Positions 2,931 to 38,012 of a stretch of DNA of 64,000 nucleotides are shown one piece after another. The position numbers and the translations under genes were made by a program. Each line of letters opens with the position of its first letter. Within the stretch, counting starts at the first letter, position 1. Source of the stretch: Alphaproteobacteria bacterium (GTDB lineage: Bacteria; Pseudomonadota; Alphaproteobacteria; RF32; CAG-239); contig JAFUXF010000026.1 of NCBI GenBank assembly GCA_017477185.1, forward strand, positions 2,215 to 66,214. Reading direction: 5' to 3'. The notes beneath the pieces were generated by a model. The model did not search any database. It had not been told where the DNA came from and saw only the letters and a list, made by a program, of their open reading frames with translations.

Positions 2931-3899
2931 TTATGTTACTTCGGTAACTGCGCGTAAGTTTCCATCTCGGTTTATTTGGACAACGCGTAATTTTTTATGC
3001 ATTTCTTCTATGGTTTTACCTCTGTCAATACTCGGATAGCTATGTAAAATACGATCAACAAAAGCCTCATATGCCGCTTCTGAACTCTCTGCGTGAATCG
3101 TTGCTAAACAGTTATCATGCCCTGATCCCATCAACTCCCATATTGCTCCGGCATTGTTGGTTGAAATCTCACCGCCGATAATCGCATCCGGCGTAAAACG
3201 AACAACCAAGTCAATAATTTTTGCATAGTTAAAATCATTTGTTTGCTCGGTACGAGACATCACAACGTGGACACGATTGGGGTGGGGAACGATTAGTTCT
3301 CGCGTATCCTCGATAGTTATAATTCGTTTATGAATATCTAATATTTTTAATAAATTATTTAAGAATGTTGTTTTACCTGTTGCGGTTGCACCACTAACCA
3401 AAATATGATCACCGCGTTTAATGCTTAACAACAGTCTTTCATAAGGATCTTCCGGATCTTTAATTGCACGGAGCGGATTGATTTTATGAAGTCCTTCGCC
3501 TTGCTTTAAACCATAATCTCCCAGACCAAACGCAACATCGTCGCTATGAACACGAATAGTCAGCGCAATGCCTCCGGTTAAGTCATCTTGATCATACATC
3601 ACATTTTTACCGCAAATCGCAGAAAAACGATGATCTCCCGGAATCGTTGCGTAAACAACCGGTGTTCCCTGTATCGGATCAAACGGAAGTTCATAAGTAT
3701 TAGCAATAATATATAACAAATCCGTTAGATATTCTTTGCTTAATTTTTCATCTTTATACAGCACCCACGGGTAAGCTCTTTTACCGCGTAAACGAAGCCA
3801 TATTTGCCCCGAACGATTGATGGCAACTTCTTCGATATTTTCCTGATTATACCAGTAAGCTAGAGGCCTTAAAACAGATTCTAATACTTTAAAACTCAT
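2931..3899 (-). CDS. virB11: VirB11-family T4SS ATPase
   Basis: Walker A motif SGATATGKTTFLNNLL. Asp-box/His-box context IITIEDTRELI ... GHDNCLATIHAESS. The 322-aa size and position next to VirB10 fit VirB11. Confidence 0.9.
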   Translation of the reverse strand: MSFKVLESVLRPLAYWYNQENIEEVAINRSGQIWLRLRGKRAYPWVLYKDEKLSKEYLTDLLYIIANTYELPFDPIQGTPVVYATIPGDHRFSAICGKNVMYDQDDLTGGIALTIRVHSDDVAFGLGDYGLKQGEGLHKINPLRAIKDPEDPYERLLLSIKRGDHILVSGATATGKTTFLNNLLKILDIHKRIITIEDTRELIVPHPNRVHVVMSRTEQTNDFNYAKIIDLVVRFTPDAIIGGEISTNNAGAIWELMGSGHDNCLATIHAESSEAAYEAFVDRILHSYPSIDRGKTIEEMHKKLRVVQINRDGNLRAVTEVT

Positions 3900-3912: not shown

Positions 3913-6900
3913 TTAGAAAAGTTGCGGTATGCTACTGTTTGAAGAAGATGATGAACTTGTTGTCGGCGGCGGAGGCGGCGGCAATGTTCCCGTCGCGGAG
4001 GCTGGTGCCGGAGTTGTTTGTGTCGGCTTATCGTCGACTAACTTTGCCGTTGGTGCGCTTTCTGCGGCAGATGGCGTATCTCCACCGCTGCCACTATAAA
4101 CGACCTGACCACTTCCTTCTCGAACACGTTTATCCGTCACTGCTTTATCATCAATCAAAACCGGACTCCTTCTATCATCTCCTGTACCTGTACCTTCAGG
4201 ATTTCGATCTTCCGTTCTCATCCATAAATCCGTATTTGGATAAATAATGATTCTTGTTCCTGCAGGAACATAAGTCAGAGGCTTAATATTAGCCTTATCT
4301 TGTAAAATTTGCTCAAAAATCTGATTCATATCTTGCAAGAAATTTTCTCTGGCATCATTTGCTGCCTGCTGTTTTGGTGTTTCAACTTCTCCATTTGAAT
4401 TCTCATCATCTGCCATCATATAAGAAGCATAACTGGTTAAGGCCGTTGTCATAATTGGTAATGTATATTTCTTAAACAACTGTTGATCCAGATACCCTAA
4501 AGCTCCTCCTCGTCCTTGCGCATCTGCTGTCAAACCATTAAATTTGAACATTGAGCCATCCGGACGAATCAGACGCTCCCAAGAAATATCAACTTTGGCA
4601 GAAACAGATGTTGTTTCTGACGTTCCAGTCAGTCCGCCTAATGTTCCTATTAAATGGCTACCCGCCGGAATAATAATATTACGCCCTTCTTCGGCATAAA
4701 CATTGCGTTCGACATATGCTGTTACTGGGGTTGGATGATTACTGTCAATTGATCTGGCAATAACTGCAGGAATAGGCTTGTCTGCCAATATCATTTCACT
4801 CATATCAACACGCCATGAAGACATTGTCTTACTAATCCCCTGATCTGACCAATCTTCTTGCATTCCATCAAAAGACCGTCTATCGACATTTGAACTGATT
4901 TTGCCTACCGACATTCCGCTTCGACGAATTTGCTGAGCAGCTCCTAGTGCGGCCGCTCTTTGAGGATCATATCTTTCTCCCGGTCCGAATCCACCTCCAG
5001 GTCCTAAGTTTGTTCCGGGACCGGTTCCCGTCCCATAAGCACCACCATGACCAAAAGTTCCTTGAGGGACGAACATTTCCGCACCCTTTTGCGGACGCGT
5101 GCTTTCTTCTATACCAATTAGTCCACCCTCTTTATCTATAATCAAACCATCCGGCGTTCGTCGACCAATCTGATTTCCTTTTTTATCGACCACCGTTCCG
5201 TCTTCCATGATATCGCCAAGATACTCTCCATCAGGGGTTAAAGCGACACCAAGTGCTGTCCGATATTTTTCCGTACCTTCCGGAGACACACCAATTTTTG
5301 GAAGTTTCGTTGTCTTATCTTTTGGGCTTCGACTAAACCATACTTTTTTTCGTCCTATAGTGTCAAAAGGATCTAACAGTTTATTTCTCCCTCTATGACC
5401 TATAATATTACCATTTATATCAGTAACTGTTCCATCATCCAGTACTTTGCCGATAACCTTACCCTCTAAATCAATAACCGTTCCATCCGGTAAGACACGA
5501 CCGATAATATTGCCATTTTCATCAAAAACTAGATCATTGGCATTAACACGACCGATAACATTACCGTTTTCATCAACAATTTCACCGGAGGAGTTTACTT
5601 TTCCTATTACATTACCCTCAAAATCAACAACTGTTCCGTCAGGCAAAATTCTACCAATAACATTACCATCCTCATCAAAAGCTAAATGGCTGACATTGGC
5701 TCGTCCGATAACATTACCGTCAGCGTCGACAACTGTTCCATCAGGTAATACTCTTCCTATTTTTTTGCCATTTAAGTCAACGACTGTTCCGTCTTCTAAT
5801 ACCCTTCCAATAAGGTTACCATCTTTATCATAAACTAAATTTGCCCTATCGACTGTGCCAAGAACCTTTCCTTCATCATCAACAATTTCTCCTGCAGCAT
5901 TCAAATGCCCAAGCAATCCGCCACCTAAATTAACAACGGTTCCATCCGGAAGCAACCGGCCGATAATATTACCATCTTCATCATATGCAAATGAAGTTTT
6001 GTTAACTTTTCCTATAATTTTACCATTTGCATCGATAACAGAGCCATCTGCTTGAACTTTTCCTATAATTTTGCCATTCACATCGACAACAGAGCCATCT
6101 GATAAAACATGACCTATAACATTACCATTTTCATCAAAAGCCAACGTGCTAACATCTGCATATCCGATAACATTTCCATCTGCATCAACAACTGTTCCAT
6201 CCGGTTGTATTTTCCCGATGACATTCCCATCTAAATCCACTGCCGTTCCGTCAGCTAAAATTTTACCGATAATGTTGCCGTTTTCATCATATATATAAAC
6301 CGTTGTCCCATCTGATGTGTCTGGGGAGACTATCTTACAATTTTTATCAATAATCTCTCCTCTCAAATTAATTTTTCCTAATATATTACCTTTTTTATCA
6401 AAAGCAAATTTTGTTATATCCGTTTGCCCGATAACCTCACCTTTTCTATTAACGACATTTCCCTGTGCATTAATTTGTCCTATCATTTGGCGGTCTTTAT
6501 TGAAAGCCATGCCTTCGCGATTTATTCTACCGATAATTTGTTCGCTTTTATTAAAAATAAAATTACCGGCATCTGCTTGTCCGATGACTTTATTGCGCTT
6601 ATTAACCACATCTCCGTTTAATTTCAGTCGTCCAATGACATTATCATCTTTATCGACAGCAACACCATCCATTTTCACTTTACCGATAATATTGTCGCTT
6701 TTATCTAATATCAGAGTATGATTATGTGCTGTCCCTAAAAATTTATCTTTTTCATCAAACACACGTCCATCTGCGCTTAACATACCAATCATCTTGCCTG
6801 CTGAATTGACAACCGTGCCATCGATTTTTACTTGGCCGACAACGTTACAGAATAAATCATATACTAAATTATCATCATCAGCGCGACCAATAATGTTTCC

Positions 6901-9900
6901 ATCTTTATCAACAACCGTGCCATCAGGCATAATTCTGCCTATTACGTTTCCCGCTTCATCAAAAGCAAATTTACTGACATCAGCCTGACCGATAATGTTT
7001 CCATCTTTATCAACAACTGTTCCGTCTGCTCTAACCATGCCAATAACATTACCGGCAAGATCCACAACTGTTCCATCAGGCAAAACACGACCGATAACAT
7101 TACCATCTTTATCAAAGACTAAATCACTTATATCTGCGTGCCCGATGACTTTTCCATCTTTATCAACGACTGTCCCGTCTGATTTAACACGACCAATTAC
7201 ATTACCGTTCATATCGACAACTGTTCCATCTGTCAGAACTTTTCCGATAATATTGCCATTTTCATCATAAACATACCGATCGCTTGTCGTTTGCGCAATA
7301 ATATTACCATCCTTATCAATTACATCCCCATTATCTTGTAATTTTCCGATAATATTGCCATCTGCATCTACCACATTGCCTTCAGCATCAACGAATCCTA
7401 TAAACTTGCCATTTGCATCAAATAGTTTTGTCATATATGTTTGAGCGTGATAATATTGCAAAGGATGAGCTTTTGCGATAAATTTTCCGGTAGAAGAATT
7501 TATCTCACCTTTGGCATTCAATAAACCTAAAACTTCGCCATTAAAATCTGTTAGTTCACCTTTAAGCGTTAATTCTCCCAAAATCTGATAGCTGTTGTCT
7601 CGAATGATAAAATCTCGATTACCTCGTCCAATCAATTGATTGTCTTTATCAATCAAGAAACCTTGTTTCATTTCTCCTAAATGACTTCCTTGCGGGGATA
7701 GCACATTTCCTTCTTTGGTAATGTACCCCATTACTTTGTTGTCTAAATCATAAATATAAAAATCATATAGGGCATAACCAATATTTCTGCCTTTATTGGT
7801 TATATTACCATAAAAATCAACCTGTCCGAGATTTTCACCCTTAGAATTTGTAACTTGCCCATCTGTGCCAACATATCCAATATATTTATCCTGTAGATTG
7901 AAGGCGACACGATATTTAAATAAATTTCCAATCGGCATACCGTTTTCGGAATTAACATTACCATTAGGTTGCATATACCCTATTATTTTATTTTTACTAT
8001 CGGCTACTTTACCGGTTAAAAGCGTTCTTCCTAAAATTTGTCCTTTAAAATTCATAACCGGATAATATTCAATTTGATGTGCTAAAACTGCGCCATCTGC
8101 ATTTTTTAAATACCCTCTTCTGTCAACACAACCTAAAACTTCATTATTATAATTCAAAACCTGCCCGTTAGCAGAGACGACACCGATAATGTCTCCCGTA
8201 AAATTAATCATAGCATTAGGGAATGCGGCATAGCCTATATATTCTCCGATTTCACTGACAACCTGTCCGTTAGGAAGAATCCGTCCTTGAACAATATCTC
8301 GATAGTTACGAACATATCCTCGCGGTGTTACTACCCCCAAAAATTCGCATTTATCATCAATAATTGAGGCATACTTAACAAGTTGTCCTACCCATACCTG
8401 ATTATTATCAAAAACATCTCGACCGTTTATAATTTTACCCAAAGTGCTTCCCGTAAAATCACGGACAATTCCGTTTACTCCCGTATAACCGAGGATATTT
8501 CCGCTAAAATTCATAACCATTGCATTATTATAGGCATTACCGTTTTTAGGACTGATGATATTTCTGCTACCGGCTTTATCTTCTACTGTCGATAAATCAG
8601 GCAATATTTTCGCGACATAAGAATCGCCACGGCTCACCATATTGTTAACGCCGATTTGACCTAAAAGTTCCCCCTGATTATTAACGACATTTTCAATATC
8701 TAGCACTTTGCCGATAATTTCATTACGTTCGTTAATACTGATGCCTGCTTGCGTTAATTTGCCGACGGTTATCGCATTTTTATTTTGCAAATCTCCGCTC
8801 GGCATAACATAAGAATCAATACTCCCCTTTTCATCATATATGGCGGACAGTCTATAACATCTTCCGGAATTTTTACCATCTGCCGTAAACATATATCCGA
8901 ACGGAGATATAAATTTCTTTTCTCCGTTATCATAAACGATACCATTGATGCCGGCTATTCCTAAAATTTTGTTATTACTATTGACGGAAAGAATATTATC
9001 AAAACTTCCGCCAACTACTCGTCCGGTATTGTCATAAGCGATATTTCCCAACATATAACCGGTTGCCGTACCATCCATTTTAGCAACGATACCGTTTTTC
9101 AGGGCCTGATGCGTTAATGTCCCTTTATAATCGAAAACAGGACCGGAATTGACAACTTTACCAATCAATTCATCATCTTTACCATAAACAAATCCTCTGG
9201 CACCAATATATCCAATGATTTCCGTGGCTCTGGCAACTTTTCCTTCCGGCAGAACACGCCCTAAATAAGTTCCCGAAAAATCTGTTGCTGTGGCAGCAAT
9301 ATCAATTGTTGAACCAATGACTTCTCCGCTATCTTTTACAACCATTCCGTCTGAACGCATTTTGCCTACTAATGTTTCTTTATTGAAAACCTCACCATTA
9401 TAAGTTACAAACCCCAGATATTTCCCTCGATTATCTATAGCATATTTACTACGGACAATACTTCCGATAATGTTTTCACTATCATTGTATACATAACCAT
9501 TTGCTTTAATATGGCCGATATTTTTACCTTCAAAATCAATAACGCTTCCCCCCGGAGCAATACTTCCGATAAAATCTCCTTGATTAGAAACAACCATTTT
9601 TGATGAAATTAAACGCCCCTCTAAAGCGATATCACTACCGATACGACGAAAAGCATATCCGTCTGCAGAAACAAAACCGATTTCTTGTCCTTGCAGATTG
9701 CTGTATGTTCCGTTTCCGGTAAAACGCCCGATTGTTTGTCCATCATCAGAATAGATCAGCCCCGGGAATAAAACGGCACCGATAATATTAAAAAATTCAT
9801 CAATAACCAAGCCGTTTGGTAGAACTCTAGCAACAATTTTTCCTGAAGGGAGGCGAACTGTTCCATCGTTTCCTACTTTTCCCAAAGGTTTATTATCGTT

Positions 9901-10161
9901 GCCGACAGCCACACCTTGCGGAACCACGCCACCAATCACTTTGCCGTTAAAATCAACGATTAAACTGTCCGCGGTTACATTGCCCAGTAATTCATTTTTC
10001 AGCCCAACAACTTTACCATCAGGAATAACTTTACCGATAACTTCACCATTAAAATTTATTGCTGTAATTTCTTGCGCCGATGCTTCTGCGGCTGAAAAAA
10101 CGTTTATTCCGCCGATTAAACCAGCAATAACAATAAATTTTAACATCCATTTTTTTATCAT
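3913..10161 (-). CDS. virB10: giant VirB10/TrbI-domain protein (~2080 aa): signal peptide, ~1600 aa of degenerate 17-aa repeats, Gly-rich linker, VirB10 C-terminal barrel domain, Pro/Ser-rich tail (CagY-like architecture)
   Basis: The C-terminal segment IPAGSHLIGT, ISWERLIRPDGSMF, TADAQGRGGALGYLDQQLFKKY and YVPAGTRIIIYPNTDLW aligns motif-for-motif with the canonical VirB10 barrel (IPRGSLLVGEY / VVWNRLVRPDG / TDALGRAGLSGHVDNHWFERF / IPQGHEFQVY). The likely true start is the internal ATG at 10159..10161 (MIKKWMLKFIVIAGLIGGINVFSAAEASA-QE), which has an SD-like GGATGG upstream. The ORF track extends the frame to 10254. Confidence 0.85.
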   Translation of the reverse strand: MIKKWMLKFIVIAGLIGGINVFSAAEASAQEITAINFNGEVIGKVIPDGKVVGLKNELLGNVTADSLIVDFNGKVIGGVVPQGVAVGNDNKPLGKVGNDGTVRLPSGKIVARVLPNGLVIDEFFNIIGAVLFPGLIYSDDGQTIGRFTGNGTYSNLQGQEIGFVSADGYAFRRIGSDIALEGRLISSKMVVSNQGDFIGSIAPGGSVIDFEGKNIGHIKANGYVYNDSENIIGSIVRSKYAIDNRGKYLGFVTYNGEVFNKETLVGKMRSDGMVVKDSGEVIGSTIDIAATATDFSGTYLGRVLPEGKVARATEIIGYIGARGFVYGKDDELIGKVVNSGPVFDYKGTLTHQALKNGIVAKMDGTATGYMLGNIAYDNTGRVVGGSFDNILSVNSNNKILGIAGINGIVYDNGEKKFISPFGYMFTADGKNSGRCYRLSAIYDEKGSIDSYVMPSGDLQNKNAITVGKLTQAGISINERNEIIGKVLDIENVVNNQGELLGQIGVNNMVSRGDSYVAKILPDLSTVEDKAGSRNIISPKNGNAYNNAMVMNFSGNILGYTGVNGIVRDFTGSTLGKIINGRDVFDNNQVWVGQLVKYASIIDDKCEFLGVVTPRGYVRNYRDIVQGRILPNGQVVSEIGEYIGYAAFPNAMINFTGDIIGVVSANGQVLNYNNEVLGCVDRRGYLKNADGAVLAHQIEYYPVMNFKGQILGRTLLTGKVADSKNKIIGYMQPNGNVNSENGMPIGNLFKYRVAFNLQDKYIGYVGTDGQVTNSKGENLGQVDFYGNITNKGRNIGYALYDFYIYDLDNKVMGYITKEGNVLSPQGSHLGEMKQGFLIDKDNQLIGRGNRDFIIRDNSYQILGELTLKGELTDFNGEVLGLLNAKGEINSSTGKFIAKAHPLQYYHAQTYMTKLFDANGKFIGFVDAEGNVVDADGNIIGKLQDNGDVIDKDGNIIAQTTSDRYVYDENGNIIGKVLTDGTVVDMNGNVIGRVKSDGTVVDKDGKVIGHADISDLVFDKDGNVIGRVLPDGTVVDLAGNVIGMVRADGTVVDKDGNIIGQADVSKFAFDEAGNVIGRIMPDGTVVDKDGNIIGRADDDNLVYDLFCNVVGQVKIDGTVVNSAGKMIGMLSADGRVFDEKDKFLGTAHNHTLILDKSDNIIGKVKMDGVAVDKDDNVIGRLKLNGDVVNKRNKVIGQADAGNFIFNKSEQIIGRINREGMAFNKDRQMIGQINAQGNVVNRKGEVIGQTDITKFAFDKKGNILGKINLRGEIIDKNCKIVSPDTSDGTTVYIYDENGNIIGKILADGTAVDLDGNVIGKIQPDGTVVDADGNVIGYADVSTLAFDENGNVIGHVLSDGSVVDVNGKIIGKVQADGSVIDANGKIIGKVNKTSFAYDEDGNIIGRLLPDGTVVNLGGGLLGHLNAAGEIVDDEGKVLGTVDRANLVYDKDGNLIGRVLEDGTVVDLNGKKIGRVLPDGTVVDADGNVIGRANVSHLAFDEDGNVIGRILPDGTVVDFEGNVIGKVNSSGEIVDENGNVIGRVNANDLVFDENGNIIGRVLPDGTVIDLEGKVIGKVLDDGTVTDINGNIIGHRGRNKLLDPFDTIGRKKVWFSRSPKDKTTKLPKIGVSPEGTEKYRTALGVALTPDGEYLGDIMEDGTVVDKKGNQIGRRTPDGLIIDKEGGLIGIEESTRPQKGAEMFVPQGTFGHGGAYGTGTGPGTNLGPGGGFGPGERYDPQRAAALGAAQQIRRSGMSVGKISSNVDRRSFDGMQEDWSDQGISKTMSSWRVDMSEMILADKPIPAVIARSIDSNHPTPVTAYVERNVYAEEGRNIIIPAGSHLIGTLGGLTGTSETTSVSAKVDISWERLIRPDGSMFKFNGLTADAQGRGGALGYLDQQLFKKYTLPIMTTALTSYASYMMADDENSNGEVETPKQQAANDARENFLQDMNQIFEQILQDKANIKPLTYVPAGTRIIIYPNTDLWMRTEDRNPEGTGTGDDRRSPVLIDDKAVTDKRVREGSGQVVYSGSGGDTPSAAESAPTAKLVDDKPTQTTPAPASATGTLPPPPPPTTSSSSSSNSSIPQLF
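5300..9950 (-). repeat. in-frame degenerate tandem repeat array (~51-bp period; peptide unit ~DxxGNVIGRVLPDGTVV) inside the giant virB10 gene
   Basis: The protein track shows dozens of consecutive GN(V/I)IG(R/K)(V/I)xxDGTV(V/I)D units. The most regular copies are at ~5300..7260, and progressively degenerate copies run toward the N-terminus. The mirror-image plus-strand ORFs (PITLPSxSTTVPSG...) are the antisense reading of the same repeats. Confidence 0.65.
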
Positions 10162-10186
10162 ATTCCATCCAGCCTTTAATTTTTTA

Positions 10187-13100
10187 TCAGTTCCTACGGT
10201 TTTTAGCAACTTCCGGCAAAGCATACCCAGAAATCTGCTTATCCATATTAACAAATGAGCCGTTATTTTTTATGTATCCGCTTTCTTTTCCCATTTCGTC
10301 GACAACAATTCCTTTAGCATTCAATCTCCCGATATATTTGCCTTCATTATTCAATATTGTTGCTCCAATTTTATATATTTTCCCCAAAATATTTTCGTTA
10401 CTATCAACTGCTAAATCGTTAGAGACGACACGTCCGACAACGACACCGCTGTTGTTGGTAATTTTACCATCAAAATTAACATAGCCTACCATTTTATCTG
10501 AGTTATCAATAACAATATCGCCGTCCAAAATATCCCCATACAACTTTCCATTACTGCTGATAACTTGTCCATCAGATAACACTCTGCCGATAACGATATT
10601 TTCTTTGTCGGCAACGGCCCCATTGGGCAGTGTTACGCCAGCTAAATTACCACCGAAATCAATAATTGTACCTCGTTTAAGTAACGTCAAATTTTTATCC
10701 GATGAGCCACCAGGAAGAATTGCAGAAATAACCGTGTTATTCAAATCAAGAACGTCCCCTAATGTGTTTGTATATCCTTGATAATTTCCCCAAATATCTA
10801 CTAAAATATTTTCCGGTAATATTTCACCAATCAATTTTCCTTGTACATCAACAGCTTTACCATCGGAAGTCGTATGCCCGACAACTTTACCATTTACGCT
10901 CAAAATCTCACCATTTTTCAAGCTGTAGCCTAAATATTGACCATCATACCCTACCGCAGCCCCTGTTTTGACAAGACCTCCCAGATATTCTCCTTTGTCA
11001 TTAAAGAAATTACCTTTGCCATCTATTTTTCCAAGTATTGCCCCATACGGACTGACAACTTTTCCATCATAAGATACAAGCCCTAAGCCTTTACCATTGA
11101 AATCAACAACTTGTCCTTGCTCAACGGGAACACCTATTTGATGATTGAAAAATCCAAAACCATCACCTATAATTTTTCCTAAATTACCACCTCTCATATT
11201 ATAAACACTCCCATCAGGGAATAATCTTCCTAAAAATTCTCCTGAAGCATCTATAAAGGAGGTTTTTTCATTCATCAGCACGCCAATAACTTTATTTGAC
11301 GAATCAGCAACTAAATTATTTACAAAAATCTTTCCTGCTTCCTTACCGACTAATCCGATTTCTCCGTTAGAATCGACAATATTGAGGAAATTTCCATTTA
11401 AGTCATACGCATAATTTTTTTCAAGAACATGACCTATGTACTTTCCATCATCATCAAAAACATCGCCATTTATGCCAACGCATCCTATTATATCCGAATT
11501 TGAGGAAACAACGTGATTATCATCAGATATTCGTCCCAAAAACAAACCATCATATCCTATTGCAACACCTTGTTTTCTTATTGCTCCGACAATATCTCCC
11601 TGTTCGTTTAAAACTGTCCCGTCCGGATTTATACAACCGACATACGTTCCTTCCGGTGTTTTAACAATACCATCAGAACCAGCCTCTCCGAGATATACGC
11701 AATTATTATTATATACAGAACCGATTTTGCTTATCTCTCCCACATATTTTCCCGTACTGTCAACGACGACACCATCGAACATAATTTTCAGCTTGGTATC
11801 CGTTATCCCTTTCATAATTTTACCGTTTTTATCAAGGTATCCGATATTTTTACAGCCATACCCGACAGCCATGCCGCTTCGTACCAATTTACCAATAACT
11901 TCCGAACCTGCCGGATCTTTTACCAAACCATTTGCCAAAACCCTGCCTATAACTTGCCCTTCTTTTTCGACAGTTCCTTGATTAGAAATCGTTCCTAAAA
12001 CGCTACCATCAGGAGCTATCGGTAGCATTTGCATCTGCACCAAGGCACCAATACTCTTACTGAATCGGCTTATAATATTCCCTTGAGCATCAATGTAGCC
12101 GATTAATTGACCACTACCATCATAGATTTGACCATCTGATGTTGCATACCCGATAATTCGCCCATTTTTATCCAAAACAAGATTAACGAAATCCCCTGCT
12201 TTGCCGATAATATTACCATTGGCGTCAACCAATGTTCCATCATCAAGCATCTTCCCTAAAATATTTCCTTTAAAGTCCACAACATTTCCGTTTTCATCCA
12301 CATATCCTATGACGTTACCATCTTTATCATAGGCTAACCGCCGCAAATCATCAACACTCAACTCTGACGCATAACCGATGACATTACCATCTTTATCAAC
12401 AACTGTTCCATCAGAAAGAACTGTACCAATAATATTTCCATTGGCATCCACAACATTTCCGTTTTCATCAATATATCCTATCATATTGCCGTTTTTATCA
12501 TAAGCAATTTGCGGCCGATGTGCTGCTTTAGCTGTTCCGATAAGATTGCCTTTTGCATCGTAAATATTACCGTTTTTATCTATTTTACCAATAACGTTTC
12601 CGTTTAAATCCACCATGGTGCCATCCGGATTAACTTTTCCAACTAATTTTCCGTTGGCATCATACATATTACCGTCGGCATCAACATAGCCCATAATCTT
12701 ACCATTAGAATCATATAGAATCTGCTTGGCTGCCTGTTCAATATTTTTTGCTTTTCCGATTAGACGACCATTCGCATCATACATATTGCCGTCTTTATCT
12801 AATTTACCAATAATATTTCCTTTTAAATCAGTAATTGTTCCATCCGGATTAACCTTTCCTATCAGCCTACCGCTGGCATCATACATATTACCATCGGCAT
12901 CTATTCGACCAATAATATTGCCATTATTATCATACAAAATTTTTTCTTTATTTTTGGATGCTGCGGCTTTTCCAATAACGTTGCCATTATTATCCACCAC
13001 CGTGCCATCAGCCAACATCCGTCCTATAGCATTTCCATCCTTATCGACAACTGTTCCATCCGGATTAACATAACCAATGACTTTACCGTTAGCATCATAA

Positions 13101-14380
13101 ACTAATCGACGATTTTCGTCGGCATGCCCTTTTATATTTTTAGTAATAACATTGCCATCTTTGTCAATAAAGCCAACGACCTTCCCATCTTTATCAACGA
13201 CGCTGCCATCAGGCATCACAATACCTAAAACATGTCCGTCTTTATCTATTGCAACACGGCCTTGCTTACTGACGCGCCCGAGGATTTTTCCATCAAGTCC
13301 GATAACCTCACCATTCTTATTTAGGCGACCAATCACATTTCCTTCGCTATCAACCACACTACCATCTGATAAAACACGCCCGATAATATTACCATTTTCA
13401 TCATAAACAAAACCGGCATCAACAGCTTGTCCGATAACATTTCCATCGGCATCAACAACTGTCCCGTCAGGTAACGCTCTTCCTATTATTTTTCCGTTTG
13501 CATCAACAACCGTTCCATCTGCGAGAACTCTACCAATGACATTGCCATTTGCATCATAAACTAATCGCTGATTTTCTGCCACTCCAATAATATTGCCGTT
13601 TTCATCTACAATCATGCCATTGGCATTAACTCTTCCTATTACATTGCCATCGGCATCTCGAACATACCCGTCCTCATCTATTGTGCCAAGAATTTCACCA
13701 TTAGCTCCTATTGCATAACGAACATTTGTATTTGAAGCAGGTGTCCCCTTTGCTAACCCAAGACTTGTCGGATCACAAAAATTACAATCTTCTTTGAGAA
13801 TCGCTTTACCCTCAACAGGCACTTTTTGCGATTTATTGCTCCCTGAACTTAAATTAGCTTCACGCCATGTAATAATAAAATTATTTTGAACATTACCGGC
13901 AACGACAGGTACCCAGTTCATTGTTATATCACAAGTCTGATGACCTCTTAACACTTGGTTACTGCACTCTTCTTTGAACGAAAAGCCATCAAAAGGCGGC
14001 TCGGCTAGTTCAACCGAGACAATACGAACACTGACCCGTCCTGTTGTCCCTATCGTCAACACATTTTTAGCATCTGTTCCAATTACAACTTGCCCCATAG
14101 CGATAGGATTAGGTGTTGTTGTAATTGGTAATTCTCCATTATCAACCGTTTCAAATTCTATACTTTCCTGAATCGGGTCTTCACTCCGGATATCTAAGGC
14201 ATCATCACTTGCCGTAAATACCGGTGCCATATATTGCTCCTCTTCCTCCTCATCACGCATTAAAAGTAATAAACCAAGAATAAAAATGACTAAAGAAATA
14301 ACACCAACCATAATAATTATATGGTTAGTTTTTCTTACATAATTTTCTGATCTGGTTAAAATTTCTCTTTCATCTTTCAT
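10187..14380 (-). CDS. giant membrane-anchored repeat protein (1397 aa) with the same GNVIGRV..DGTVVD repeat family
   Basis: The N-terminus MKDEREILTRSENYVRKTNH plus TM IIIMVGVISLVIFILGLLLLM gives a type II anchor, like the VirB10 N-terminus. It is followed by an acidic stretch, a Cys-containing domain, then ~35 repeat units. The gene lies between virB9 and the giant virB10, separated from the latter by a 25-nt spacer. Confidence 0.7.
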   Translation of the reverse strand: MKDEREILTRSENYVRKTNHIIIMVGVISLVIFILGLLLLMRDEEEEEQYMAPVFTASDDALDIRSEDPIQESIEFETVDNGELPITTTPNPIAMGQVVIGTDAKNVLTIGTTGRVSVRIVSVELAEPPFDGFSFKEECSNQVLRGHQTCDITMNWVPVVAGNVQNNFIITWREANLSSGSNKSQKVPVEGKAILKEDCNFCDPTSLGLAKGTPASNTNVRYAIGANGEILGTIDEDGYVRDADGNVIGRVNANGMIVDENGNIIGVAENQRLVYDANGNVIGRVLADGTVVDANGKIIGRALPDGTVVDADGNVIGQAVDAGFVYDENGNIIGRVLSDGSVVDSEGNVIGRLNKNGEVIGLDGKILGRVSKQGRVAIDKDGHVLGIVMPDGSVVDKDGKVVGFIDKDGNVITKNIKGHADENRRLVYDANGKVIGYVNPDGTVVDKDGNAIGRMLADGTVVDNNGNVIGKAAASKNKEKILYDNNGNIIGRIDADGNMYDASGRLIGKVNPDGTITDLKGNIIGKLDKDGNMYDANGRLIGKAKNIEQAAKQILYDSNGKIMGYVDADGNMYDANGKLVGKVNPDGTMVDLNGNVIGKIDKNGNIYDAKGNLIGTAKAAHRPQIAYDKNGNMIGYIDENGNVVDANGNIIGTVLSDGTVVDKDGNVIGYASELSVDDLRRLAYDKDGNVIGYVDENGNVVDFKGNILGKMLDDGTLVDANGNIIGKAGDFVNLVLDKNGRIIGYATSDGQIYDGSGQLIGYIDAQGNIISRFSKSIGALVQMQMLPIAPDGSVLGTISNQGTVEKEGQVIGRVLANGLVKDPAGSEVIGKLVRSGMAVGYGCKNIGYLDKNGKIMKGITDTKLKIMFDGVVVDSTGKYVGEISKIGSVYNNNCVYLGEAGSDGIVKTPEGTYVGCINPDGTVLNEQGDIVGAIRKQGVAIGYDGLFLGRISDDNHVVSSNSDIIGCVGINGDVFDDDGKYIGHVLEKNYAYDLNGNFLNIVDSNGEIGLVGKEAGKIFVNNLVADSSNKVIGVLMNEKTSFIDASGEFLGRLFPDGSVYNMRGGNLGKIIGDGFGFFNHQIGVPVEQGQVVDFNGKGLGLVSYDGKVVSPYGAILGKIDGKGNFFNDKGEYLGGLVKTGAAVGYDGQYLGYSLKNGEILSVNGKVVGHTTSDGKAVDVQGKLIGEILPENILVDIWGNYQGYTNTLGDVLDLNNTVISAILPGGSSDKNLTLLKRGTIIDFGGNLAGVTLPNGAVADKENIVIGRVLSDGQVISSNGKLYGDILDGDIVIDNSDKMVGYVNFDGKITNNSGVVVGRVVSNDLAVDSNENILGKIYKIGATILNNEGKYIGRLNAKGIVVDEMGKESGYIKNNGSFVNMDKQISGYALPEVAKNRRN
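10300..13710 (-). repeat. in-frame degenerate tandem repeat array (same ~17-aa family) inside the 1397-aa gene
   Basis: Repeated DANGNVIGRVLADGTVVD / DENGNIIGRVLSDGSVVD-type units are visible in the translation. Degeneracy increases toward the C-terminus. Confidence 0.6.
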
Positions 14381-15960
14381 TGCGTTCTAACCACGCTGCA
14401 AAATACACCATTTCTTCCTAATCGACTGCAGACATCATCACCTTCCTGCAACGTCTCAATCGGACCAACTCTTAAATGAAACAGTTCTTTTCCTTGTCCG
14501 TCAGCAGCCGCATCAACCGAGAAAAATGGTTCATATTGTTTTAATGTATCAGAATATTTTTTAGATAACGAGCCCCATAAGCTCTCTAAATTACTGACAT
14601 TACTATCTGTCCCCAACTCTATAGATATATTGCTGTTGTCTGCAAACATCAGTCCTTGTCCTTTACCTCCTCTGTTAGCATAACTGCCTTCCGGTGCATA
14701 ATTTCCGTCGTTTGTAATACGTTGCATATTGGCATAATCAAAATCCCCCTGATTATTTCCATATCCAGGACGATAAGTAATATTCACGCCACCGTTTGGA
14801 TTTTGGCTGTAATTTGATAAAACAAAATTTCCACTGCCACTTGACATATTGTCTCCACCACTATTATCACCCAATCCGCCATTCTTGCCTGGGATTGGGG
14901 CCGGAACTTGCCATTGATGTTCATCTAAATCTTTAGTAGTCGGTGCAAATTCTAATCCGGCTTCATCAGAACGTCTCAATTTCAGACAAACCATTCTCTT
15001 ACCATTCCGCATAACCATATCGCCTATACCCTCAACGATGATTAAGCGATTATTGGGTCCTTTTGTTCTAAAGCCAACCGGCACTTCCAGACGTTCAACA
15101 ATCAGCGTTACGATAGGGCGTTGCGTCATTGTCAATGATTTTTCCCCTAAATCAATATAAGTAAAAATATCATCTCGCCATACTCGTTCCGGTGCAATGA
15201 CAACATCCTCAGGATTTGGAATATAGACTTCAACATCAAACCTAAATTTTGAAGCATCTAGAGGAATAGATTTTATCCAATCTTCTCTTTGAAAACTTTT
15301 AGTAAATAAAGAATCGACAGATTTATTCGGCCCACCTCTATAGGTTGAGGCATTTACTCCGCTGTGTCCACCAATACTTCCCGCAGAAACTCCTGCACCA
15401 CGAGATCCTGACGGACCGTCAATCACATCAACATCGATAATTGAGTTTGTCAGTCGTTCTGTGTTTACCCCTTCACTCTTCAGATAAAAGACATACTTAT
15501 TACCGCTTCTGCCAAAGATCACAATATTTGTATCCACTCCAACATTTGCTCCTTTTTTAGGATAAAGGAGCACTGTGTTCGGACCGGAAATTTGTCCGTC
15601 AAAGCTCGAGCTATCACCTAAATAAATATCCTCAACTAATTCCCAACTCGGAAAATTAAGTAAAGTAATCATTCCTTCTCTCACACGAATTGGCAATATT
15701 AAATCCGGAGACCAATAATATTTGGAATAAGCAGGCTTGCTTTGCCCTTCTCCCAAGTTTTGCAACGGATCAAGCCACGCACTTTGCGTCATTCCCAAAG
15801 CATTAAAGCCGGCATATCCCATATTCATAGGCATGTACATTCCCTGACTCTGATCAGCATTCTGATCCAAGCTCCCCATAGTTGCCTGAGAGCGTGCATT
15901 TTGAGTACCGCTCATTATGATGATAATTAAAAATAAAATTCGACCAAATGCCTTAATCAT
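14377..15960 (-). CDS. virB9: enlarged VirB9-like protein (527 aa): signal peptide, VirB9 N-domain, G/N-rich spacer, possible C-terminal SPOR-like domain
   Basis: The VirB9 N-domain pattern is present (GDSSSFDGQISGPNTVLLYPKKGANVGVDTNIVIFGRSGNKYVFYLKS, resembling 'gn.l.vKP...TNL.V.Td.r.Y.F.L'). The C-terminal ...GKELFHLRVGPIETLQEGDDVCSRLGRNGVFCSVV resembles the yRVrvGPf...A..lC..L...G..C.vv end of SPOR domains. The size is comparable to CagX-type VirB9 proteins. Confidence 0.7.
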   Translation of the reverse strand: MIKAFGRILFLIIIIMSGTQNARSQATMGSLDQNADQSQGMYMPMNMGYAGFNALGMTQSAWLDPLQNLGEGQSKPAYSKYYWSPDLILPIRVREGMITLLNFPSWELVEDIYLGDSSSFDGQISGPNTVLLYPKKGANVGVDTNIVIFGRSGNKYVFYLKSEGVNTERLTNSIIDVDVIDGPSGSRGAGVSAGSIGGHSGVNASTYRGGPNKSVDSLFTKSFQREDWIKSIPLDASKFRFDVEVYIPNPEDVVIAPERVWRDDIFTYIDLGEKSLTMTQRPIVTLIVERLEVPVGFRTKGPNNRLIIVEGIGDMVMRNGKRMVCLKLRRSDEAGLEFAPTTKDLDEHQWQVPAPIPGKNGGLGDNSGGDNMSSGSGNFVLSNYSQNPNGGVNITYRPGYGNNQGDFDYANMQRITNDGNYAPEGSYANRGGKGQGLMFADNSNISIELGTDSNVSNLESLWGSLSKKYSDTLKQYEPFFSVDAAADGQGKELFHLRVGPIETLQEGDDVCSRLGRNGVFCSVVRTQ

Positions 15961-15970
15961 TATTTTAACC

Positions 15971-16720
15971 TTATTTTGATTTATTACGCATTAAAGAATA
16001 TTGTACCACTGTAAATCCTACAGGATTATTCAAACGATCATTAAACTTGACAGATTTTCGGCGATAAACCACACGCAAAGATGCTGTCCAATAATTAATC
16101 TCCGGTGCAGATGATGACGGATACATATCTGTCGTTTCGTATTCTACTTGCCACAAACCGCGTCCCAGCTCATTAACTGTCAAAATATTAACTCTTCGCT
16201 GTAATCCTCTTTGTCGAACCAAATCTAAAGCTCGCCTAGCCGTTTTATTAATAAACTCATCATATACAGCAGATGATGACATTTCCTGAATTGGACCACC
16301 CGGAAGCCAGCGAACTTCCATTTCTGCCTCATCATTAACAATTGTGCTGCGTTGGAGAACATAACTTCGAACAAATGTTTCCGTAATGGATTTGTTTTCG
16401 ACTAAATCTCCACTGTAAGGTACAATATTATATATTTGTTCTTCTTTATTTTGAAATGTCAGCAAATACGGCTCAACTCTAAACAAAGGAATAACCTGAG
16501 CAATAGCAAGTAACAAAACAATATTACAGCATAAACTGACAACCATGATAACAGCAAAAGCACGCGCTGTCCACAAATAACGTTTTTCGTTATTATTTGC
16601 AACAAACACATTTTCTTGTTGAGGACGGCGCATTTGAGAACGCGAACTATTGTTCAGATTTGCTCTGCCTATCAGTTTCTGCTCGCTATTATTACCAAGC
16701 TGATTTGCCATCTGTCGCAT
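15971..16720 (-). CDS. virB8: VirB8-family protein (paralogue 2; bitopic, NTF2-like)
   Basis: Single TM (FAVIMVVSLCCNIVLLLAIAQVIPLF) after a cytoplasmic N-terminus. The C-terminal signature NNPVGFTVVQYS matches the VirB8 NPxGFxVxxY motif. Confidence 0.8.
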   Translation of the reverse strand: MRQMANQLGNNSEQKLIGRANLNNSSRSQMRRPQQENVFVANNNEKRYLWTARAFAVIMVVSLCCNIVLLLAIAQVIPLFRVEPYLLTFQNKEEQIYNIVPYSGDLVENKSITETFVRSYVLQRSTIVNDEAEMEVRWLPGGPIQEMSSSAVYDEFINKTARRALDLVRQRGLQRRVNILTVNELGRGLWQVEYETTDMYPSSSAPEINYWTASLRVVYRRKSVKFNDRLNNPVGFTVVQYSLMRNKSK

Positions 16721-16726
16721 TTCCTA

Positions 16727-16930
16727 TTAAATTGTTTCAATAAACCAATCCGGCAAATCTTTAGGTAATTCAATATGCATACATGCACAAGGTGATAATT
16801 TTAATTCATCCACACCTTTACCCACGCCTACGGGTTCAGCCTCATAATATGACCCAAAAATACCACAGGAGGGCAACATTATGACTGCAACTACCATTAT
16901 AATTTTTTTTATCATTCTGAGATACCTCAT
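16727..16930 (-). CDS. small lipoprotein (67 aa), VirB7-like by position between the two virB8 genes
   Basis: Signal peptide MIKKIIMVVAVIMLPSC-G with Cys at the cleavage position, and a short mature part. Its position corresponds to VirB7 in T4SS operons. Confidence 0.4.
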   Translation of the reverse strand: MRYLRMIKKIIMVVAVIMLPSCGIFGSYYEAEPVGVGKGVDELKLSPCACMHIELPKDLPDWFIETI

Positions 16931-17778: not shown

Positions 17779-20700
17779 CTAAAAATTGCCTGCGAGTTGT
17801 GAACAATAGATATTACCGATCTGATGCAACATACGCTTGAATTCCTTATCTGCCTCTTGTTTTTGTTTCGCTAAAACTTGACGATTTGTCTTTTCCGATT
17901 TTATTTTTTCCTCTAAATCAGCATCTGCTTTTGAGTTATCTGATACAACAGTATATGCTCCGTCATCTTTTTGGAAGACTTTTATCAAATCATTTATTTT
18001 CTGTATTCTTTGTTCAATAATCTCATTGTTATTATTTTGAAATGTCTTGACTTGAGAGGCGGCTGTAGAGATTAATTGGTTACGATACCTCATCAAAGTT
18101 TCATATGCTAATTTGTAGTCATCTTCATTAGCTAAATCAAAATCTTGTGCCGGCGTAAAACCGATTTTAGTAAATAATTCATATAAAGGTTTTTTGGCTT
18201 TTTCAATTTCAAACTGCATTTCAGCTTTGTTTTGACGACTCTGTTGCTCGTAATCTGCTCGCTTTAAGAAATCTCCGATTTGATTTTGGTGTAAACTGGC
18301 AATATCAAATAAAATATCTTTTTGCTCTATTTCTGTATTCGAATCTTTGTGGACATCTGACAGGCGTTGGAAAACATCTTTTGCCAATGCGTTATATTTT
18401 AAGCCATTATCGTATGTTAATATGTGTCCCAGCTCACTCATATTTTGTGAGGGTTTAAACTCACTTAATGATTTTACTTCAGCTATACCTGAAACATCAT
18501 CTGCAAGATTTTTCACGGTATAGTACAATCCTTTTCCTGATACTTCAATATCATAGCATGGATTGCATCCTTCCGCTTCAAGTTTTTTCCAGATTTGAGT
18601 TTCTTTTTCTTTTTGCTCTGTATCAAACATTCTGGCTGTAGCCGTGTATAATCTGTATCTATCCCCTGTTGAAGTAACCAAAAAATTTTTGTATAAACAC
18701 GGAAACATTCCGCCACTGGCCAGTCTTTCAACAGAAGGACGAATGACCGTACTTAAATCTATTTCTTTTTCAACATACGCCGGTTTTCTTAAAATATATT
18801 TCCAAATTTCGGGAACAAACGCGAGGTTGTTCAGTACACCTTCTGATGTAACCAATCCTGATGCACTTCTTGGAATATTGTCATATGTTCCGTAATCGAA
18901 ATAAAGGGTTTCCCTTATCGTCGGCAACGGAACATCCGGAACGGACTTCGGGGCACGGAAATCGCGGTGTTTACCTTCATTACTAACAAAATATTCAACA
19001 TCCGGTTCTTGACAATAATTATGCAAGCAGGCTTCTTCTACAATATATTTTTGGTAAATTGCTCGCAATAAAGACATAATCTCCCCATATGAGCTGTATG
19101 CACCGATATTTGAACTGTATTCAGTCAGTTCTTTTGTCGGCAATTCTCTCAGCTTGTTCATCAATTGCTTATGAATATCAACAACTTGTCTATGATTGTT
19201 GGGATTGTATAAACTATCTCCCATTGCATAAAGCTGATCAATTGTATCTTTTACCAATTCCTCTGCCACACCTCTTGTATCTACAACCAACTGATTAGCA
19301 TTGTTAAGTATTTCCGGTAAGCTAAAAAGATAGGGCGTTTCATCATCAATCATTGTCGGAACGCTAAAATGACTTTGAAAATATGAACTTAAATCCAAAT
19401 TCTTTACTTGGTCAATGGTATCAGCATACCTTTTTTCTTCATCTTGAATTTTATTATCATTTGCAACTGTTATCGCATTAGCCTCATTGGCATATGCATC
19501 ATTAACTTTTTGAATAGATAAAGGTATCTCCGTTTCTAATTTTGTTTTAAGTATATTTAATTGAGCTGTTGTTTCTTCTATCTTTTGATTAACATCAGCT
19601 AACTTTTGTTTTAGGGCTAATACTTTTTCTCGGTTTTCGCTCAAAACATTTTCCGTTTCGGCAATTGCATCAGGTTCATCATACTCTGTTTCAGTTATTT
19701 GAGTCTCGCTTCTTATATAAGTTTTGACAGATGAATCTTCATCTGCTTTTGGTGCTGTTTGCGAAAGCTGAGCATTTACAAGTTGTTGTGTTTGGCGATA
19801 AATTCCTTGTTCTATAAAGTAGCTTTGCTTTTCATTATCTGCCGGCAATTCTTTTTGATAAGTTTCCGTTGAGTTTTCTATCGCCTTAATACCAAGCCCA
19901 TCTTTTTCTTTTTGCAGTAATGTTTTTATTTTAGTCTCTGCACCGGATATTATTGTTTCAGCTTGTAAAATTTCTTCTTCCAGATCTTGTCTTTGAATAT
20001 TTAATGCATCTAACTGAGCTTGACTTCGATTTATTTTATTTACGAGTGTTTCTTTTTCTCGCTCAATATTAGCTAATTGCTGCTCTTTCCTATTATATAA
20101 AGCGTTTAATTTTTCTTTTTCTTCCGCAACCAGAGCATCAACATTATTGGTTATATTATTATTTTCCCTTAAAACTTTATCTTGCAAAAGTGCTAAAGCA
20201 TCAGCATTGTGTTGTTTTTCATCATAGTCCTCAACTAAATTATTCAGTTGTTCGGCAACTTTTAATGTTACTTCCAGGACATTAATTGCATTTAAGCGTT
20301 GTATGATTTTATCGTATTTTCCTTCTATATACTGATTGTAATAAGATTGCGTATCTTTCCATACGGGATAGGCTTTTTTTATTCTTCCCCACTTGCCGTT
20401 TATACCATTTTCTGCCTGATCCTTTGCTAGCATTTTGGCTGCTTCTGAACCGATATTCCATGCTAATTTTTCGCTGGCTTTGAGTTCTTCATCAACCTTC
20501 TTCTCTTTTGCTGCATTTTTAAAACCACCGCTTTTTTTATTAATTTGTGATTTAAGGCGGTCAGCTTGACTTAAATCAGAGCTATCAACCCCCTCCGTAG
20601 AAACGTTTAATTCACTAAAATCATCTGCTTCAGCAACAACTCCTGTATCTATTGCTTTTGCCACATTATATGCCTTTAGTGCCCAACCGGAAATTCCTTT

Positions 20701-26653: not shown

Positions 26654-26728
26654 AGTACCCTCCTTTGAGAAGCCTTGATTATTTATTCTAACAAAAATTT
26701 GCATGAGGATAAACAATATTCTGCTTCA

Positions 26729-29530: not shown

Positions 29531-30070
29531 CTATTCAAAAGACCACATTATATTGTTTTTCTCTTGGCAATATTGTTTGGCCTGCTTACGACTTAACGGT
29601 AATCCCTTATTTCCCCAACTAAAATCATATGTTCCCTTATCATTTTGAATACTCATTGAAATTAAGCCCAGTTTATCTTGCTCTTTTCCCTGAAAAATTG
29701 CTAATTCAATGCATTCTTTTTTATCTAATTCTCGATAAGTAATAACAAAACTTCTTGCCCCCGGCATCACTTGTGTCCCGTCACCATCAGCACCGATTAC
29801 GACTTCTTTGCCAAGAGTATTAAAGATTTTATTATCTTTCAGCTCTCCTTGATAAAACTTTTGCTCTATTGCAACTGTATTGTTCAGTCCCCAGTAATCC
29901 GGACGATTGCGGTAGTACATCCGAACTTTCTCGGTCATTTTTATCAATTCTTTGTCTGCAGCAATAATCTCTGAAGGAGGACGTTTAAAACTGAAGATTA
30001 CACCCAACAAAATGATAAAAAATAATGAAAACAGCCATATATACAAAATCAATTTTTCTTTATTTATCAT
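29531..30070 (-). CDS. small N-terminally anchored protein with two C-terminal Cys, non-canonical pilin-like candidate (position of R64 pilS)
   Basis: The ATG at 30068..30070 lies 1 nt after the stop of the GspF-like gene. It gives MINKEK + LILYIWLFSLFFIILLGVIFSF, a short polar leader plus ~22-aa hydrophobic helix, followed by a ~150-aa domain with Cys...Cys ~50 aa apart. It lacks the G/F/E5 prepilin peptidase site, so calling it a pilin is tentative. Confidence 0.35.
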   Translation of the reverse strand: MINKEKLILYIWLFSLFFIILLGVIFSFKRPPSEIIAADKELIKMTEKVRMYYRNRPDYWGLNNTVAIEQKFYQGELKDNKIFNTLGKEVVIGADGDGTQVMPGARSFVITYRELDKKECIELAIFQGKEQDKLGLISMSIQNDKGTYDFSWGNKGLPLSRKQAKQYCQEKNNIMWSFE

Positions 30071-30071
30071 G

Positions 30072-31187: not shown

Positions 31188-31198
31188 GTGTTTTTTCC

Positions 31199-32875: not shown

Positions 32876-32881
32876 TTGTCA

Positions 32882-35603: not shown

Positions 35604-35622
35604 CGGTTTTCCTCTTTTATTC

Positions 35623-37290: not shown

Positions 37291-37291
37291 T

Positions 37292-38005: not shown

Positions 38006-38012
38006 TTACAGC

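Follow-up and report, generated by a model that had tools for sequence, protein, structure and literature searches.

A giant beta-flower VirB10 probably split between an anchor gene and a Sec-exported barrel gene in a gut or rumen alphaproteobacterium

In type IV secretion systems (T4SSs), VirB10 acts as the energy-sensing bridge, and a single chain running through both membranes is its textbook feature. In a 64,000-nucleotide (nt) stretch of contig JAFUXF010000026.1 from an Alphaproteobacteria bacterium (assembly GCA_017477185.1), hereafter the window, this bridge appears to be encoded by two adjacent genes. We consider it probable (about 0.72) that the window carries a split giant VirB10 consisting of an inner-membrane-anchored half of 1397 amino acids (aa) and a Sec-exported barrel half of 2082 aa. 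The sequence-only reading of this stretch had described a single-gene VirB10, a view that was incomplete since the adjacent 1397-aa beta-flower gene with its transmembrane (TM) anchor had been missed. The two genes are as follows:

10187..14380, minus strand: partner gene of 1397 aa, the proposed anchor-bearing half, recognized by its translation and Pfam matches and located next to virB10 in all 20 species loci.
3913..10161, minus strand: virB10, the proposed barrel-bearing half, a single open reading frame (ORF) between the beta-flower anchor gene and virB11.

The partner protein begins with a cytoplasmic tail of ~20 aa, followed by a TM helix (aa 20-41, hydrophobicity 3.25), an acidic stretch, an Ig-like domain with four invariant cysteines that extends to ~aa 230, and ~68 beta-flower hairpins (Pfam Bflower_2, E 3e-102). 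The tail carries an invariant L..SE.Y..K.N motif, which was found only in this upstream protein and nowhere in the window VirB10. Genomes were scanned at one per species, yielding 20 loci, all of them metagenome-assembled genomes (MAGs) from Hadza and other human gut, mouse and roe deer. At every virB10/partner junction in these 20 species-representative genomes there is a stop codon and a signal peptide. The VirB10 ORFs of the 20 loci measure either 1480-1620 aa or 2100-2330 aa, and the window protein aligns end to end with its roe-deer MAG ortholog at 71% identity.

Evidence for a split comes from relatives in which both halves form one protein. An exhaustive search with the barrel region returned 102 representatives at E values up to 1e-30, and the giants among them fall into two architectures. 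Split forms (1400-1900 aa) start with a signal peptide followed by QEITAI, while unsplit forms (1930-2406 aa, 34-42% identical) carry an SSSE.Y.KKSN motif and TM module at the start and the TrbI barrel at the end. Pfam detected Bflower and TrbI on one chain in the unsplit proteins P0102, P0111, P0113 and P0133. In BLASTP comparisons, the window anchor module matched the N-termini of unsplit VirB10s (E 5e-26 for P0102 and 4e-20 for P0113), so that each half of the window pair has its homologous part in the unsplit protein. Two independent gap-free contigs encode identical copies of P0113, in each case as the sole gene between virB9 and virB11. At four more loci the anchor ORF continues in phase into a tandem array leading to the barrel, interrupted only by a 100-N scaffold gap. 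In a neighbor-joining tree of the barrels, the split forms make up one clade nested among the unsplit giants, apart from the ordinary VirB10s of 370-680 aa. A profile search with the unsplit-type anchor module returned six short fragments only, and one contig ended early.

On the minus strand, the stretch 3913..10161 is one ORF of 2082 aa plus stop. The reading frame already opens at a TTG (10254), but its likely start is the ATG at 10161, which a GGA-rich stretch precedes. Gaps of 25 nt and 13 nt separate virB10 from the stop of the upstream 1397-aa gene and from the downstream virB11, respectively. The sequence-only reading had given the gene coordinates exactly, with the strand left unstated, and much of its account of the protein was borne out. 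The barrel it proposed gives a significant match to PF03743 and is preceded by ~1600 aa of in-frame 17-aa repeats. The Gly-rich linker is present and conserved across the family; the poly-Pro/poly-Ser tail exists as well, and its terminal PxLF is conserved. A Sec signal peptide in place of a TM anchor agrees with a pattern kept in 18 orthologs, from which cleavage is inferred. Placement of repeats and barrel in different frames or genes had been named as grounds for giving the idea up; the two share one uninterrupted frame. The protein is divided as follows:

10075..10161, minus strand: putative Sec signal peptide, aa 1-29 (MIKKWMLKFIVIAGLIGGINVFSAAEASA then QEITA), with a hydrophobic segment at aa 5-27 and an AxA site at which cleavage would occur.
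7372..10074, minus strand: degenerate 17-aa beta-hairpin repeats forming a conserved core, aa 30 to ~930, with an occupancy of 1.0 in 19 orthologs and a 17-aa periodicity.
5383..7371, minus strand: lineage-specific regular array, aa ~931-1593, of 51-aa super-repeats of three hairpins each (occupancy 0.16-0.46; autocorrelation).
5251..5382, minus strand: non-repeat basic spacer, aa 1594-1637, with no unit match and an AlphaFold2 predicted local distance difference test score (pLDDT) below 50.
5098..5250, minus strand: last three conserved hairpins, aa 1638-1688, fitting the family consensus LTPDGEYLG... (pLDDT 84-89).
4822..5097, minus strand: conserved Gly-rich linker (FGHGGAYG...NLGPGGGFGPGERYDP) and helix, aa 1689-1780, from the family consensus and AlphaFold2.
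4222..4791, minus strand: VirB10/TrbI beta-barrel domain, aa 1791-1980, from Pfam PF03743, NCBIfam, ComB10 in the PDB and Foldseek.
4291..4485, minus strand: two-helix antenna projection in the barrel domain, aa 1893-1916 and 1929-1957 (AlphaFold2 helices, model residues 607-630 and 643-671).
3916..4221, minus strand: variable C-terminal tail, aa 1981-2082, with poly-Pro and poly-Ser runs and a conserved terminal (I/V)PxLF (consensus PPPPP...PxLF; pLDDT <50).

That the gene ends in a true VirB10/TrbI barrel is confirmed. In Pfam, TrbI (PF03743) matches aa 1791-1980 with an E value of 8.9e-35 and 120.7 bits, against a gathering score of 35, over profile positions 2-187 of 188. The NCBIfam models T4SS_ComB10 (NF038092; E 1.8e-32, 112.5 bits, cut-off 300) and T4SS_VirB10 (NF038091; E 8.9e-30, 103.7 bits, cut-off 220) also match; since both scores fall under the equivalog cut-offs, the window VirB10 belongs to a divergent subfamily. 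The closest solved sequence in the PDB is ComB10 (E 8.6e-22), followed by CagY (E 6e-6), TrwE and TraF. An AlphaFold2 model covering aa 1287-2082 shows the barrel together with two long antenna helices. Compared by Foldseek with 8rt6, 7o3j, 6gyb, 6x6s, 2bhv and 3jqo, it gave E values of 2e-11 to 4e-9 and target-normalized TM-scores of 0.57-0.70, and the matches comprise VirB10 C-terminal domains of R388, Xanthomonas, Cag, ComB, pKM101, Dot/Icm and F (E 2e-11 to 7e-4). The antenna helices align with those of ComB10 and other VirB10 C-terminal domains. The membrane-spanning role of the antenna is known from established VirB10 structures, and by analogy the two helices presumably span the outer membrane here as well.

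Other features of a VirB10 are shared in part. The gene lies in the canonical position, with virB9 upstream and virB11 downstream, except that the anchor gene intervenes after virB9 in the 20 loci. Neither the cytoplasmic tail nor the single TM anchor is present in the window VirB10 chain, both being encoded in the upstream gene. A Pro-rich periplasmic linker is likewise absent from the chain; beta-hairpin repeats and the Gly-rich linker take its place, and the sole poly-Pro run is in the C-terminal tail. In the AlphaFold2 model the Gly-rich linker is predicted to be disordered and is followed by a helix at model residues 447-463; the Gly-rich stretch is kept family-wide with the consensus NLGPGGGxGPGERYDP. 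A post-barrel tail of ~100 aa, with a poly-Pro run and an (I/V)PxLF end or a similar end with a terminal aromatic residue, was seen in split and unsplit forms alike. Its conserved end suggests a possible C-terminal docking or sorting motif.

The repeats of VirB10 belong to the beta-flower family (PF21785, PF21784 and DUF3659; clan CL0395). Pfam Bflower_2 matches the protein in 15 stretches with an E value of 1e-127 and 418.6 bits (gathering threshold 38), which excludes a chance match; Bflower (155.9 bits against 25, including a match at aa 790-845) and DUF3659 (179.3 bits against 24.8) match as well. Together with TrbI, RHS_repeat and MORN_2, these are all Pfam matches of VirB10 at E values up to 0.01. 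RHS/YD membership was rejected: the scores for RHS_repeat and YD_repeat_2x add up weak pieces, none of which passes alone, the period is 17 aa, there is no RHS core or toxin domain, and the Foldseek E value to TcdB2-TccC3 exceeds 1. The beta-flower Pfam families were built in 2023 for a fold known from AlphaFold models only, in which each petal is a beta-hairpin with [DNEQ]xxG at its tip (PMC10584680). The window unit ..VVDxxGNVIG.. bears a D-x-x-G that fits this tip motif. AlphaFold2 predicts one beta-hairpin per 17 aa with pLDDT of 85-97, DSSP assigns two strands per 17 aa, and a model of the regular array has 18 hairpins in 307 aa at a pLDDT of ~90.

Amino-acid autocorrelation peaks at lags 17, 34 and 51 (0.25-0.39, compared with ~0.1 background). 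The units span aa 31 to ~1690 and amount to ~90-95 hairpins, with 38 consecutive spacings of exactly 17. This count comes from a loose motif and autocorrelation, as a narrow self-built unit hidden Markov model (HMM) under-counted the degenerate N-terminal units. The ~100 copies claimed earlier are therefore real repeats whose number was set slightly high. A period of 51 aa is most pronounced in aa 880-1640, and the regular array reaches an autocorrelation of 0.39 at this lag. Its super-repeats combine three motifs: S.LAFDE.GN.IGR.LP, DGTVVD..GN.IG.V.A and DGTVVD.DGN.IG.ADV. In a conservation profile of 19 orthologs, aa 31-930 form a universal core at 35-77% identity, and the first 200 aa of the mature protein (66-77% identical) match the barrel in conservation. 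All orthologs also keep the last three hairpins, the Gly-rich linker and the barrel. By contrast with this universal core, the regular array (aa ~930-1630) is common to L001-L003 only and absent from the ~1500-aa orthologs. Its identity with the three sharing species is 57-71%, thus the expansion is old, and the array at aa ~930-1600 is a lineage-specific expansion of long standing rather than a rapidly recombining switch.

Several points weigh against the split VirB10 as proposed. The barrel tree carries no support values. BLAST of window segments onto the unsplit ORFs produced repeat-to-repeat alignments that are non-unique and ~25-30% identical (all about 27%), which give neither positional orthology inside the repeats nor an exact split point. 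The two halves total ~3450 aa, which exceeds the unsplit proteins by ~1000 aa, so that duplication and expansion accompanied the split. The same excess suggests duplication over a simple cut and would fit another account, in which the 1397-aa neighbor is an independent accessory scaffold (cf. DotF or Cag3/CagM/CagT) that arose by partial duplication, and VirB10 is an outer-membrane and periplasmic cap with no inner-membrane link. Binding of the two proteins to each other is inferred, and the Dot/Icm system provides a precedent with a separate inner-membrane-anchored DotF beside DotG (PMC6761968). We nevertheless regard this account as unlikely. The N-terminal module of the neighbor is the very VirB10 N-terminus of the unsplit relatives, no extra anchor gene lies between virB9 and virB11 in any unsplit genome examined, the two genes are strictly inherited together at a spacing of 25 nt, and conservation within the repeats is highest near the junction. 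The N-terminal segment of VirB10 itself could also be an uncleaved signal-anchor, giving a bitopic topology with a minimal cytoplasmic tail and making the upstream protein a paralogous second spoke. Canonical VirB10 proteins are N-terminally anchored, and the hydrophobic segment (aa 5-27) reaches a Kyte-Doolittle value of 1.9 over 19 residues. However, this h-region is short and varies freely in sequence between species, as does the basic n-region. In 18 orthologs the -3/-1 positions always obey the AxA rule, and strong conservation begins exactly at +1/+2 with QEITAI(D/N)FNG. Cleaved Sec signal peptides show this arrangement, and the cytoplasmic motif L..SE.Y..K.N is confined to the upstream protein. 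A retained anchor in VirB10 is accordingly quite improbable.

The least likely of the accounts considered here is the one favored by the sequence-only reading, a CagY-like VirB10 whose surface-exposed repeats change size by in-frame recombination and so tune T4SS activity or antigenicity. Several features do recall CagY. Here, too, in-frame repeats precede the barrel of a giant VirB10, the 12 identical direct-repeat pairs of at least 16 nt in the window virB10 all have in-frame spacing, and VirB10 size varies between species from 1425 to 2318 aa. But the 51-nt DNA units of the window are on average only 54% identical, and no identical direct repeat exceeds 26 nt. By comparison, cagY's middle repeat region has 235-302 repeats averaging 35-48 nt and more than 300 potential recombination events (PMC2194252). 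The age of the expanded array also counts against a switch. Population samples were available as metagenome contigs of three related species, none of them the species of the window. In the first, mature VirB10 had 1697 aa in all 22 contigs (21 distinct sequences, 99.1-100% nucleotide identity), and in the second 1525 aa in 8 of 8. The 20 contigs of the third gave 1533 aa (11 contigs), 1534 aa (six, with an extra Ser in the tail), 1524 aa (two, with a 10-aa non-repeat deletion) and 1582 aa (one). The last variant has gained 48 aa, i.e. three extra repeat units (L060 compared with L061). In the partner gene, one clean 175-aa repeat deletion was seen among ~10 contigs (L100 compared with L089); it is flanked by a direct repeat, and its flanks are 100% identical. 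Both variants could be real alleles, although the deletion might be an assembly collapse. In-frame repeat changes do occur in these relatives but are rare; for them a CagY-like switch is already largely refuted, and the proposed phase or size variability is contradicted by the 12 repeat pairs of at most 26 nt and the near-constant lengths.

Copy-number variation is better sought in the unsplit lineages, whose arrays are much younger than that of the window. Their 162- or 237-nt units are 85-87% identical at the DNA level and defeat short-read assembly, and 100-N gaps lie inside tandem arrays just upstream of the barrel in L022 (9881-9980), L023 (9866-9965), L024 (8164-8263) and L107 (4870-4969). 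Surface exposure, also claimed earlier, is unlikely. In solved core complexes of the 3JQO and 7O3J type, the barrel lies beneath the outer membrane with its N-terminus toward the periplasm. As the repeats of the unsplit relatives sit between the inner-membrane anchor and the barrel, by analogy the window repeats are most likely periplasmic. This argument is not absolute, since CagY has the same overall topology and is reported to be surface-exposed.

VirB10 normally couples the T4SS ATPases to channel gating, and the split form proposed here could preserve this function with two chains. Across the wider family, VirB10 is a single chain of 1930-2406 aa with a short cytoplasmic tail, one TM helix, an Ig-like domain, a very long beta-flower chain where a Pro-rich linker is usual, a Gly-rich linker and the barrel. 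In the split form, signal peptidase would remove aa 1-29 of VirB10, and the barrel half would assemble with VirB9-SPOR, its likely partner, under the outer membrane, where the antenna helices would form the pore. The anchor half would keep contact with the inner-membrane ATPases, while the ~95 and 68 hairpins of the two proteins would remain in the periplasm. The halves would hold together non-covalently, with the first 200 aa of VirB10 and a conserved C-terminal portion in the anchor protein as the most likely contact sites. Such an association would rebuild the bridge from inner to outer membrane and build an enlarged periplasmic scaffold. Taken as a whole, a VirB10 split throughout a clade of prevalent human and animal gut Alphaproteobacteria, with energy coupled over the periplasm by non-covalent beta-flower contact, with a first role for beta-flowers (as a periplasmic scaffold or in engaging peptidoglycan) in a DNA-uptake or contact-dependent rather than conjugative T4SS, is a tentative picture to which we give somewhat less than even odds.

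The gene order virB8-virB8-virB9-anchor gene-virB10-virB11 is identical in the 20 species-representative genomes. The same operon was also found in ~80 metagenome contigs, and all hosts are gut or rumen Alphaproteobacteria. The genes adjoining the VirB10 pair are:

14377..15960, minus strand: virB9 (CagX family) with a C-terminal SPOR domain (Pfam CagX 4e-11, SPOR 3.8e-4), syntenic in all loci.
2931..3899, minus strand: virB11 ATPase (NCBIfam VirB11, 8e-41), 87-97% identical across related loci.

The SPOR domain of VirB9 follows a Gly/Asn-rich linker, and the same C-terminal sequence is present in the distant unsplit-type loci L022 and L023; through it the core complex may be tethered to peptidoglycan. 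Housekeeping genes (S1, cmk, accA and alpha-amylase) flank the locus, which places the T4SS cluster on the chromosome, and no integrase or relaxase was found. An origin from a mobile element, be it a plasmid, an integrative element or a phage, was rejected on these grounds. The host is a low-GC gut or rumen alphaproteobacterium with a chromosomal T4SS operon. Within the cluster at 404-29218 on the minus strand, Pfam and NCBIfam recognized no VirD4 coupling protein, relaxase or polytopic VirB6. The lack of recognized VirD4 and relaxase genes, together with a barrel that best matches ComB10 of a DNA-uptake T4SS and the fusion to a type IVb pilus cluster, suggests that this T4SS may not be conjugative and may instead serve DNA uptake or act by contact.

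Additional candidates for T4SS components were noted, all on the minus strand. Between the two virB8 paralogs lies a 67-aa ORF (16727-16930) with a signal sequence and a lipobox-like LPSC, making it a candidate VirB7-type lipoprotein; L022, L023, L024, L106 and L108 have small ORFs (58-62 aa) in the corresponding place. In a 549-aa ORF (21996-23645), a long coiled coil is followed by a C-terminal region that weakly matches VirB2/TrbC pilin, and a 797-aa coiled-coil protein (24323-26716) has a faint TrbJ/VirB5 match. VirB4 (26729-29218) has an N-terminal hydrophobic region at aa 26-60 and may be a VirB3-VirB4 fusion. Proteins lacking a family match include a secreted protein of 1401 aa (17779-21984) and two proteins of 562 and 564 aa (1136-2824 and 38013-39707). 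Directly upstream of the T4SS genes and on the same strand is a type IVb pilus cluster (29531-39707) with a PilS-like pilin, T2SSF platform, T2SSE ATPase, PilO, PilP-like protein, secretin and TcpQ; the joint block measures ~39 kb.

The repeats also mark the DNA itself. GC skew is strongly negative (-0.25 to -0.37) over 4001-16000, across both repeat genes, probably due to Gly/Asp/Val-rich repeats using G-starting codons on the minus strand rather than to a replication signal. The repeat DNA opens long spurious plus-strand ORFs at 5447-5833, 6317-6721 and 6995-7270, and likewise in L022 and L023. In metagenome annotations, antisense ORFs are called and the real gene is cut to 850 aa or less from internal Met residues, so that the family is badly represented in protein databases. 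Homolog fragments of up to 850 aa from a word-indexed search were accordingly read as products of gene-caller truncation and scaffold gaps rather than as genuine short proteins; an exact search for the window protein in the contig index had no match. Under-representation of the family in public protein databases has two sources, truncation by gene callers and gaps left by assemblers.

Repeat inflation of the VirB10 periplasmic region (CagY and DotG) was already known, and the beta-flower family had been catalogued. The new elements are beta-flower repeats in VirB10, with ~160 hairpins per protomer pair, and the proposed division of the protein between an anchor gene and a gene for a Sec-exported barrel. 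In the literature searched we found no description of a beta-flower VirB10, of repeats on such a scale or of an anchor/barrel split, and nothing relevant on RF32 type IV secretion or DUF3659. A clade-wide split VirB10 with unsplit relatives would offer a natural test of whether ATP-dependent gating needs covalent continuity. Following CagY and DotG, it would also be a third independent instance in which repeats have massively inflated the periplasmic region of VirB10, here with a different fold and no hypervariability, which implies that inflation can be architectural rather than immune-evasive. A fold known from AlphaFold models only is now placed in a defined machine, where its structure and partners can be studied. 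Finally, the analysis flags a conserved T4SS and type IVb pilus locus in abundant uncultured gut Alphaproteobacteria.

Among known systems, Helicobacter pylori CagY (1927 aa), the VirB10 ortholog of the Cag T4SS, resembles the window protein in being a giant VirB10 whose TrbI-type barrel follows a large region of in-frame repeats, and its barrel superposes on that of the window (6x6s and 6odi; Foldseek E ~1e-10, TM-score 0.69). The window repeats are, however, 17-aa beta-hairpins, and no CagY repeat family occurs among the Pfam matches at E values up to 0.01. The repeats are thus unrelated and represent an independent expansion, as the sequence-only reading had supposed, although they are not a new family, being already catalogued in Pfam as beta-flower/DUF3659. 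Further differences from CagY are the diverged DNA repeats, the near-constant length among strains of related species, and the distribution over two genes with a cleavable-type signal peptide. CagY is also not the only well-known parallel, as had been stated: DotG (IcmE), the VirB10 homolog of the Legionella and Coxiella type IVB secretion system, has an N-terminal anchor, central repeats and a C-terminal TrbI domain. The central repeat region of DotG varies in length between species, and the protein ranges from <1000 to >1500 aa across Legionella (PMC6761968). Its fold matches the window barrel at 9ngw and 7muq in Foldseek. In contrast to the window VirB10, which has no pentapeptide family match, DotG carries 10-aa or pentapeptide-like repeats on a single polypeptide, and the window operon is of the type IVA kind (VirB4, B8, B9 and B11) without Dot/Icm genes.

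Canonical VirB10, TrwE (R388), TraF (pKM101) and ComB10 share with the window protein the barrel with antenna and a gene position between virB9 and virB11. They have only 370-680 aa, with cytoplasmic tail, TM anchor and Pro-rich linker in one chain, whereas in the window the linker consists of ~1660 aa of repeats, the anchor is in another gene and there is an extra C-terminal tail of ~100 aa. Close counterparts are the unsplit giant beta-flower VirB10s of Alphaproteobacteria-like metagenome lineages (for example P0102, 2201 aa; P0113, 2350 aa), of which no description was found in the literature searched. They have the same repeat family, Gly-rich linker, barrel and operon position, as well as the N-terminal anchor module of the window's upstream gene, but are single polypeptides, some of them with the young, 85-87% identical arrays. 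Known beta-flower proteins (PF21784, PF21785 and PF21786; Durairaj et al. 2023) share strong HMM matches and the hairpin petal with its [DNEQ]xxG tip. Those described to date have ~100 aa, stand alone, are often lipoproteins and are of unknown function (PMC10584680), whereas here ~160 petals are chained inside a core component of a secretion system.

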